From assembly GCA_030149205.1 (NCBI GenBank), contig JASBSB010000007.1, forward strand, positions 210,001-242,000: a stretch of DNA of 32,000 nucleotides, read 5' to 3'. Position 1 is the stretch's first letter, and each line of letters opens with the position of its first letter. This document shows positions 25,513 through 25,746 of the stretch, piece after piece. Below the pieces are notes generated by a model, which was not told the origin of the DNA, searched no databases, and saw nothing but the letters and a program-made list of their open reading frames with translations. Source of the stretch: Candidatus Heimdallarchaeota archaeon. Lineage in GTDB: Archaea; Asgardarchaeota; Heimdallarchaeia; Heimdallarchaeales; Kariarchaeaceae. The position numbers and the translations under genes are program-made.

Positions 25513-25518
25513 AGGTGA
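25513..25518 (+). promoter_or_regulatory. Shine-Dalgarno AGGTGA upstream of rps17e
   Basis: The same hexamer lies 5 nt upstream of the ATG of rps19e, PDCD5-like and rpl31e. Here it lies 6 nt upstream of ATC 25525. Confidence 0.7.
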
Positions 25519-25524
25519 TTTAGA

Positions 25525-25746
25525 ATCGGAAAGGTAAGATCTAAACAAACAAAAAGAATGGCAAAAACGTTGGTAGTAAATTTCTATGACCAGCTAAATC
25601 TAGATTTTGAAAATAATAAAGGTGTTGTACAGAGAGTAACCAACGTATCTGGAAAACACCAAAGAAATAAAATTGCAGGATATGTAACAAAACTTATGCG
25701 TCAAATCAAAGAGGGTAAAATACAAACCCTAGAATCACTGGAGTGA
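25525..25746 (+). CDS. rps17e: 30S ribosomal protein S17e, starting at a non-canonical ATC codon
   Basis: DFENNK and RNKIAGYVTKLM. The in-frame upstream extension (M)GKVRSKQTKRMAK restores the conserved S17e N-terminus MG(K/R)VR. Confidence 0.93.
   Translation: MGKVRSKQTKRMAKTLVVNFYDQLNLDFENNKGVVQRVTNVSGKHQRNKIAGYVTKLMRQIKEGKIQTLESLE

Follow-up and report, generated by a model that had tools for sequence, protein, structure and literature searches.

Where does translation of ribosomal protein eS17 begin in this archaeon and, if it begins at a codon other than ATG, why has that codon been kept? The gene lies in a 32,000-nucleotide stretch (the window) of a genome from the Kariarchaeaceae-like Heimdallarchaeia, in the Asgard archaea. 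The open-reading-frame finder places its start at ATG 25558, as the first-pass annotation had observed. That annotation proposed initiation instead at an ATC codon eleven codons upstream, in frame with GKVRSKQTKRM, and the sequence bears out this frame. The features at issue, all on the plus strand, are the following.

25525..25746, +: eS17 (rps17e) coding sequence, 73 codons from ATC, based on Pfam PF00833, PDB alignments and ortholog lengths
25525..25527, +: ATC, the putative initiation codon, in the Met1 column across orthologs
25513..25519, +: Shine-Dalgarno (SD) sequence AGGTGAT, a 7-nt match to the 16S tail at an aligned spacing of 5
25516..25518, +: in-frame TGA within the SD, which rules out any start further upstream
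25558..25560, +: internal ATG (codon 12), the gene-caller start, private to this genome
25476..25481, +: TATA-like TTTAAA, some 49 nt upstream of the eS17 start
25756..26064, +: uS10 (Pfam PF00338), directly downstream of eS17
24465..25409, +: gene for the RFC small subunit, upstream of eS17, a neighbor that is not conserved

The eS17 start site

The 16S 3' end of this genome reads GATCACCTCCT, so that the SD of eS17 is a 7-nt match, and its spacing falls inside the genome-wide peak of 3-6; in other members of the family the eS17 SD is shorter (3-5 nt). AGGTGA, placed 6 nt ahead of the ATC as first described, is followed by TTT AGA and then by ATC GGA AAG GTA AGA. The same motif does stand 5 nt before three further starts in the window, the minus-strand ATGs at 15026, 14594 and 14090. 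The Pfam S17e match begins at codon 2, which is model position 2, and covers model positions 2-68 with 75.4 bits (cut-off 22.8); the score is 75 bits for the ATC-started form versus 62 bits for the short form. In gap-free alignment the ATC stands opposite Met1 of the solved archaeal and eukaryotic eS17 proteins, with PDB matches over residues 1-68. The protein, which ends at the stop codon 25744-25746 and for which one gene copy was found in the genome, is an ordinary short archaeal eS17, collinear with the solved structures from residue 1; the start codon is the sole difference here. eS17 combines the features of an SD-led near-cognate start: no canonical start upstream, an SD at optimal spacing and a conserved codon column in which relatives have canonical starts.

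The public protein collection holds a truncated eS17 of 62 aa. This form would be the real one if translation began at ATG 25558, which is indeed present in frame; the ATC might also be a sequencing error. Against the short form, the codon-12 ATG is missing from all ten other family genomes, which have Ile or Val at that place; in those genomes the first canonical codon inside the gene falls at varying places between codons 17 and 35, and the 11 codons that a start at ATG 25558 would skip are conserved. An assembly error is rejected because 10 of the 11 family genomes, separately assembled, carry ATC or ATA in the Met1 column. A Logan contig of depth 77 (run X1) has the same letters and is possibly the source sample itself; the contig of run X2 starts at 25532, beyond the ATC codon. 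The truncated form and the misread letter are thus largely refuted and very unlikely. With no ATG in the Met1 column of the family, the alignments argue that eS17 very probably starts at ATC 25525, as the first-pass annotation had proposed. Gene finders truncate the protein because this start is ATC or ATA and not ATG.

The surroundings of the gene point to independent expression. A T/A-rich peak at -56 to -40, seen in 14 genomes of the family and its sister family, suggests a promoter belonging to eS17 itself and a short leader, about 20 nt long, that holds the SD. The RFC gene is not translationally coupled to eS17, as 115 nt separate its end from the ATC; coupling to an upstream gene is rejected among the relatives as well, since roughly 100 nt or more lie between eS17 and its upstream neighbors, which vary. 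Downstream, ATG 25756 is preferred over TTG 25750 as the uS10 start because of SD spacing, and the eS17-uS10 pairing is seen only in the organism's own genus. No conserved stable structure was found around the eS17 start (z = 0.08, with weak and dissimilar folds in the relatives), and eS17 shows no leader structure of the kind expected for autogenous control by a ribosomal protein. The family comparison revealed no conserved upstream ORF at this start. An overlapping mini-ORF was rejected, as an ATG-led ORF of 6 codons exists in G001 and G003 only, while the corresponding letters here are GTG ATT TAG.

Weak eS17 starts in the family and across the Asgard archaea

We compared eS17 in 11 genomes of the family (f1). 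The Met1 column holds ATC in five, ATA in five and TTG in one; ATG occurs in none. All ten orthologs that start with ATH (ATA, ATC or ATT) have 73 codons, and in nine of these ten genomes the stretch from the upstream stop to the conserved start contains no ATG, GTG or TTG. The codon has changed at least three times within the family on a 14-gene tree, and no tip carries ATG. The three genomes of the sister family f4 likewise lack ATG in this column (TTG in two, GTG in one). In the outgroups ATG prevails: it is found in f3, in 23 genomes of f2, in six of f6 and in six of f5, with ACG in one further f5 genome. Because all 29 genomes of f2 and f6 use ATG, the weak start is not essential.

An even Asgard sample provided 96 genomes with a full-length eS17 match. 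In 48 of them the match begins at model position 2, and none of these starts is ATG (31 TTG, 7 CTG, 6 GTG, 3 ATC and 1 ACG); in the 48 whose match begins at model position 1, ATG was present in 24 of the 24 checked. The eS17 codon is CTG in all six f22 genomes against a local baseline near 10%, and TTG in 13 of 16 genomes of another Asgard family against none in an 80-kb sample, both comparisons being drawn from small samples of kin that are not independent. CTG is also found in f27 and ACG in G049 (loci L271-L276, L233 and L251 for these starts). The TTG baseline is itself high in several Asgard families (25-47%, small samples). Weak eS17 starts thus recur across Asgard lineages, with differing codons. 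In a Helarchaeota eS17 (L036:3001-3201) the letters ATG TGT GGA AAA GTA place one additional codon ahead of the conserved Gly.

Near-cognate starts and initiation factors elsewhere in the genome

How exceptional eS17 is within its genome was assessed from codons behind SD matches of at least 6 nt that lie upstream of any canonical start. ATT occurs 13 times at such positions versus 4.0 expected (p=3e-4) and ATA 7 times versus 3.3 expected. For this genome, the share of ATH among SD-led starts is roughly estimated at about 9% with SD matches of at least 6 nt and about 1% with matches of at least 5 nt; the equally rough figure for G001 is about 6%. ATG starts about 72% of SD-led genes. The first-pass annotation called AUC on a core ribosomal gene unusual, a view that has to be tempered, as several other core genes here and in the family use ATH or CTG. 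The uL1 gene (L142; genome C4:669392, +) has ATA preceded by a perfect SD of 10 nt; within the genus, all four genomes have ATA or ATC (ATC in the three sisters) behind an SD of 9-10 nt, and the remaining family has ATG. The uL3 gene (L172; genome C2:414659, -) has ATT with no canonical codon available, and ATT or ATA in 6 of 12 f1 genomes. The uS3 gene (genome C8:201701, -; some 8.3 kb ahead of the window) starts with CTG in G000, G001 and G003, this genome included, and probably with ATA in G007.

General use of ATH in the family is nevertheless ruled out: 10 other ribosomal genes have almost all ATG, and of the 409 ortholog pairs between G000 and G001 no more than about 2-3 have a non-canonical start in common, many ATH starts occurring in just one genome of a pair. 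Nor is an enrichment of ribosomal genes among near-cognate starts supported, their share (4 of about 45) being about the genome-wide one. With ATT and ATA enriched behind strong SD matches, few shared pairs and ATG on about 40 other ribosomal genes of this genome, AUH initiation is a tolerated, uncommon and gene-specific event, and eS17 is the case fixed family-wide. Further SD-led candidates, named by eye, are DnaG-like (ATC), Rpo6-like (ATT), PPDK-like (CTG), acetyl-CoA synthetase-like (ATT) and unnamed (ATA), at these sites:

genome C4:95521, -: SD-led candidate start
genome C4:172731, -: SD-led candidate start
genome C4:532119, +: SD-led candidate start
genome C8:500358, -: SD-led candidate start
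genome C7:231277, -: SD-led candidate start

In the same genome the ribosomal-protein clusters are split (C2:412874-411853 and other contigs), with uL3-uL4-uL23-uL2, uS19-uL22, uS3-uL5 and uS14-uS8-uL6 lying apart, and two alike open frames of 221 codons stand 11 kb apart (genome C4:550164 and C4:561392, +), possibly by local duplication.

Two initiation factors, aIF1 and in some relatives aIF1A, also belong to the genes with weak starts, and the aIF1 gene of this genome is:

L037:1468-1794 (genome C4:157380-157706), -: aIF1 (SUI1), with an apparent ATA start behind GAGGT

In this gene no canonical codon precedes the zinc knuckle. At the conserved x-F-D-D column, SD-led ATA or ATT is present in nine of the ten scorable f1 genomes, at an SD spacing of 4-7, and TTG in the tenth; in three sister genomes an ATG also abuts the SD. 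Beyond f1, aIF1 has SD-led ATA in f12 and f18 and CTG in f8. For aIF1A, SD-led ATA was found in G006, G011 and G004 (L325, L338 and L348). TTG is common on aIF1A in f2, and G001-G003 have two aIF1A-like genes.

The C-terminal motif of aIF1 is QGNH in all of f1, versus QGD in most relatives and in the solved aIF1/eIF1 structures, with which alignment confirmed its position. We take the motif Asp to be yeast D83 of the sui1-1 (Sui-) allele. The usual form is QGDH or QGDQ, with QGNF in f5 and QGAH in f7. The change from QGD to QGN was rejected as the cause of AUH starts, as QGN is also found in f5 and AUA-started aIF1 occurs together with QGD. Defects in KsgA, the initiator tRNA or h45 were ruled out as well, for all look ordinary; the tRNA has A1-U72 and three G-C pairs.

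Selection, drift and regulation

The explanation that we favor, with a probability of roughly 0.55 for the statement as a whole, is that eS17 is intact and translated from AUC, and that selection has preserved its weak start. Archaeal initiation complexes are pre-positioned by the SD, and pairing at the codon then triggers the release of aIF1 (PMC6237735). At eS17 the SD would fix the 30S subunit and place AUC in the P site, where Met-tRNAi would pair with two of the three bases and leave a mismatch at the third. The protein would then begin Met-Gly-Lys-Val-Arg, with the Met probably removed. Weaker start codons are expected to lower translation (PMC6237735), and aIF1 of S. solfataricus discriminates against an AUU mRNA in vitro (PMC4705826). 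The weak codon would make eS17 output dependent on the strictness of aIF1 against non-AUG codons, so full-length eS17 may be made at a reduced, aIF1-sensitive rate. It would act as a fixed damper, retained by selection, on a small protein with its own promoter. The family ribosome appears to tolerate AUH as the start of a few per cent of the genes that an SD precedes, and other Asgard lineages would arrive at a weak eS17 start through UUG, GUG, CUG or ACG.

Selection has to be set against relaxed fidelity and drift, by which AUH is accepted behind a good SD, ATG was lost neutrally in an ancestor and the codon has no function. Four-fold sites, which are saturated (pairwise identity 0.29-0.42), served as the neutral reference. 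A column without G in ten genomes is common among them (49 of 100), so a lack of ATG has by itself no significance as evidence against drift; it is informative only when compared with how strongly other genes prefer ATG, not when compared with neutrality. The third base as a whole reads differently. Only A or C in all ten genomes was seen in 3 of 100 neutral columns, and no T in 7 of 100; all-C in the four-genome ATC clade was seen in 1 of 322 four-fold columns and 3 of 39 Ile columns. The third base of the eS17 start codon is thus more conserved than neutral. AT-rich genomes drifting freely should often yield ATT, a codon missing from all ten eS17 genes. Positions close to a start are under constraint for other reasons too, and this counts against selection for weakness as such. 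The genome-wide enrichment of ATT and ATA behind strong SD matches, the many ATH starts private to one genome of a pair, the alternation of uL1 and uL3 between ATG and ATH inside the family and the QGN motif of every family aIF1 also speak for drift. The recurrence of weak eS17 starts in many Asgard families, the AUA-starting aIF1 genes in families with canonical QGD and the ordinary KsgA, initiator tRNA and h45 speak against it, and we regard drift as possible but rather doubtful.

The weak starts of the factors raise a further explanation, an Asgard fidelity loop like those of infC and eIF1, in which the near-cognate aIF1 start would set the output of weak-start translation genes, eS17 being the most constant of them; from the present comparison it appears unlikely. 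In such an active feedback regulon, low aIF1 would raise initiation on aIF1, aIF1A, eS17, uS3, uL1 and uL3 together, which would tie the supply of ribosomal components to the stringency of start-codon choice. The conserved ATH at the aIF1 column in nine of ten scorable family genomes agrees with this, as do ATA on aIF1A in three family genomes, three other Asgard families in which aIF1 starts with ATA or CTG, and the precedents of infC (PMC4705826) and eIF1 autoregulation (PMC6237735). But ribosomal genes are not enriched over their genome share, the set of weak-start genes differs between genera, nothing singles out eS17 for co-regulation, and its start has neither a conserved RNA structure nor an upstream ORF. 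The first-pass annotation suggested that the AUC start might be regulatory; a regulon of this kind is plausible yet quite unlikely.

Comparison with known systems places the preferred reading, a weak eS17 codon kept by selection. The E. coli infC gene (IF3) starts with AUU and is under translational autocontrol (Butler 1987, as cited in PMC4705826). Like eS17 here, it is a translation gene whose near-cognate AUH start is led by an SD, and in both cases a fidelity factor rejects such codons, IF3 there and aIF1 here, the family aIF1 itself starting with AUA or AUU. It differs in that the archaeal factors are aIF1 and aIF2, the codons here are AUC or AUA rather than AUU, and feedback is established there but only a candidate here. 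Because eS17 is a structural ribosomal protein and not a fidelity factor, it is not an infC-type autoregulated gene, though its start would work like SD-led AUU and AUA starts of bacteria. The reviews consulted give only AUG, GUG and UUG as archaeal start codons (PMC7531240). The weak GUG and UUG starts (PMC7531240, PMC6237735), used by many Asgard eS17 genes, are similarly SD-dependent, with a mismatched codon and lower output expected, whereas the eS17 mismatch here is at the third base (AUC/AUA). eIF1 is autoregulated through an AUG in poor context (Ivanov 2010, as cited in PMC6237735). The homologous aIF1 also has a suboptimal start in the family, which differs in using a non-AUG codon and SD instead of Kozak context and bears on aIF1 directly, on eS17 indirectly. 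In the archaeal start-codon literature, of which our coverage is incomplete, we found no report of AUH starts in Asgard archaea or on eS17. The present comparison adds the family-wide fixation of AUH on eS17, the phylum-wide weak eS17 starts, and the AUA starts on aIF1 and aIF1A of Heimdallarchaeia.

Gene callers truncate eS17, and uL1, uL3, uS3 and aIF1 would fare likewise; phylogenomic studies of eukaryote origins draw on this lineage. A core ribosomal gene with a family-fixed AUC or AUA offers a clean natural case in which to learn how aIF1 and aIF2 assess the third base, and it bears on the question, left open in PMC4705826, of whether start-codon stringency is regulated in archaea. If the fidelity loop exists, archaea would have a counterpart of their own to such stringency feedback, and it would lie in the group most closely related to eukaryotes.
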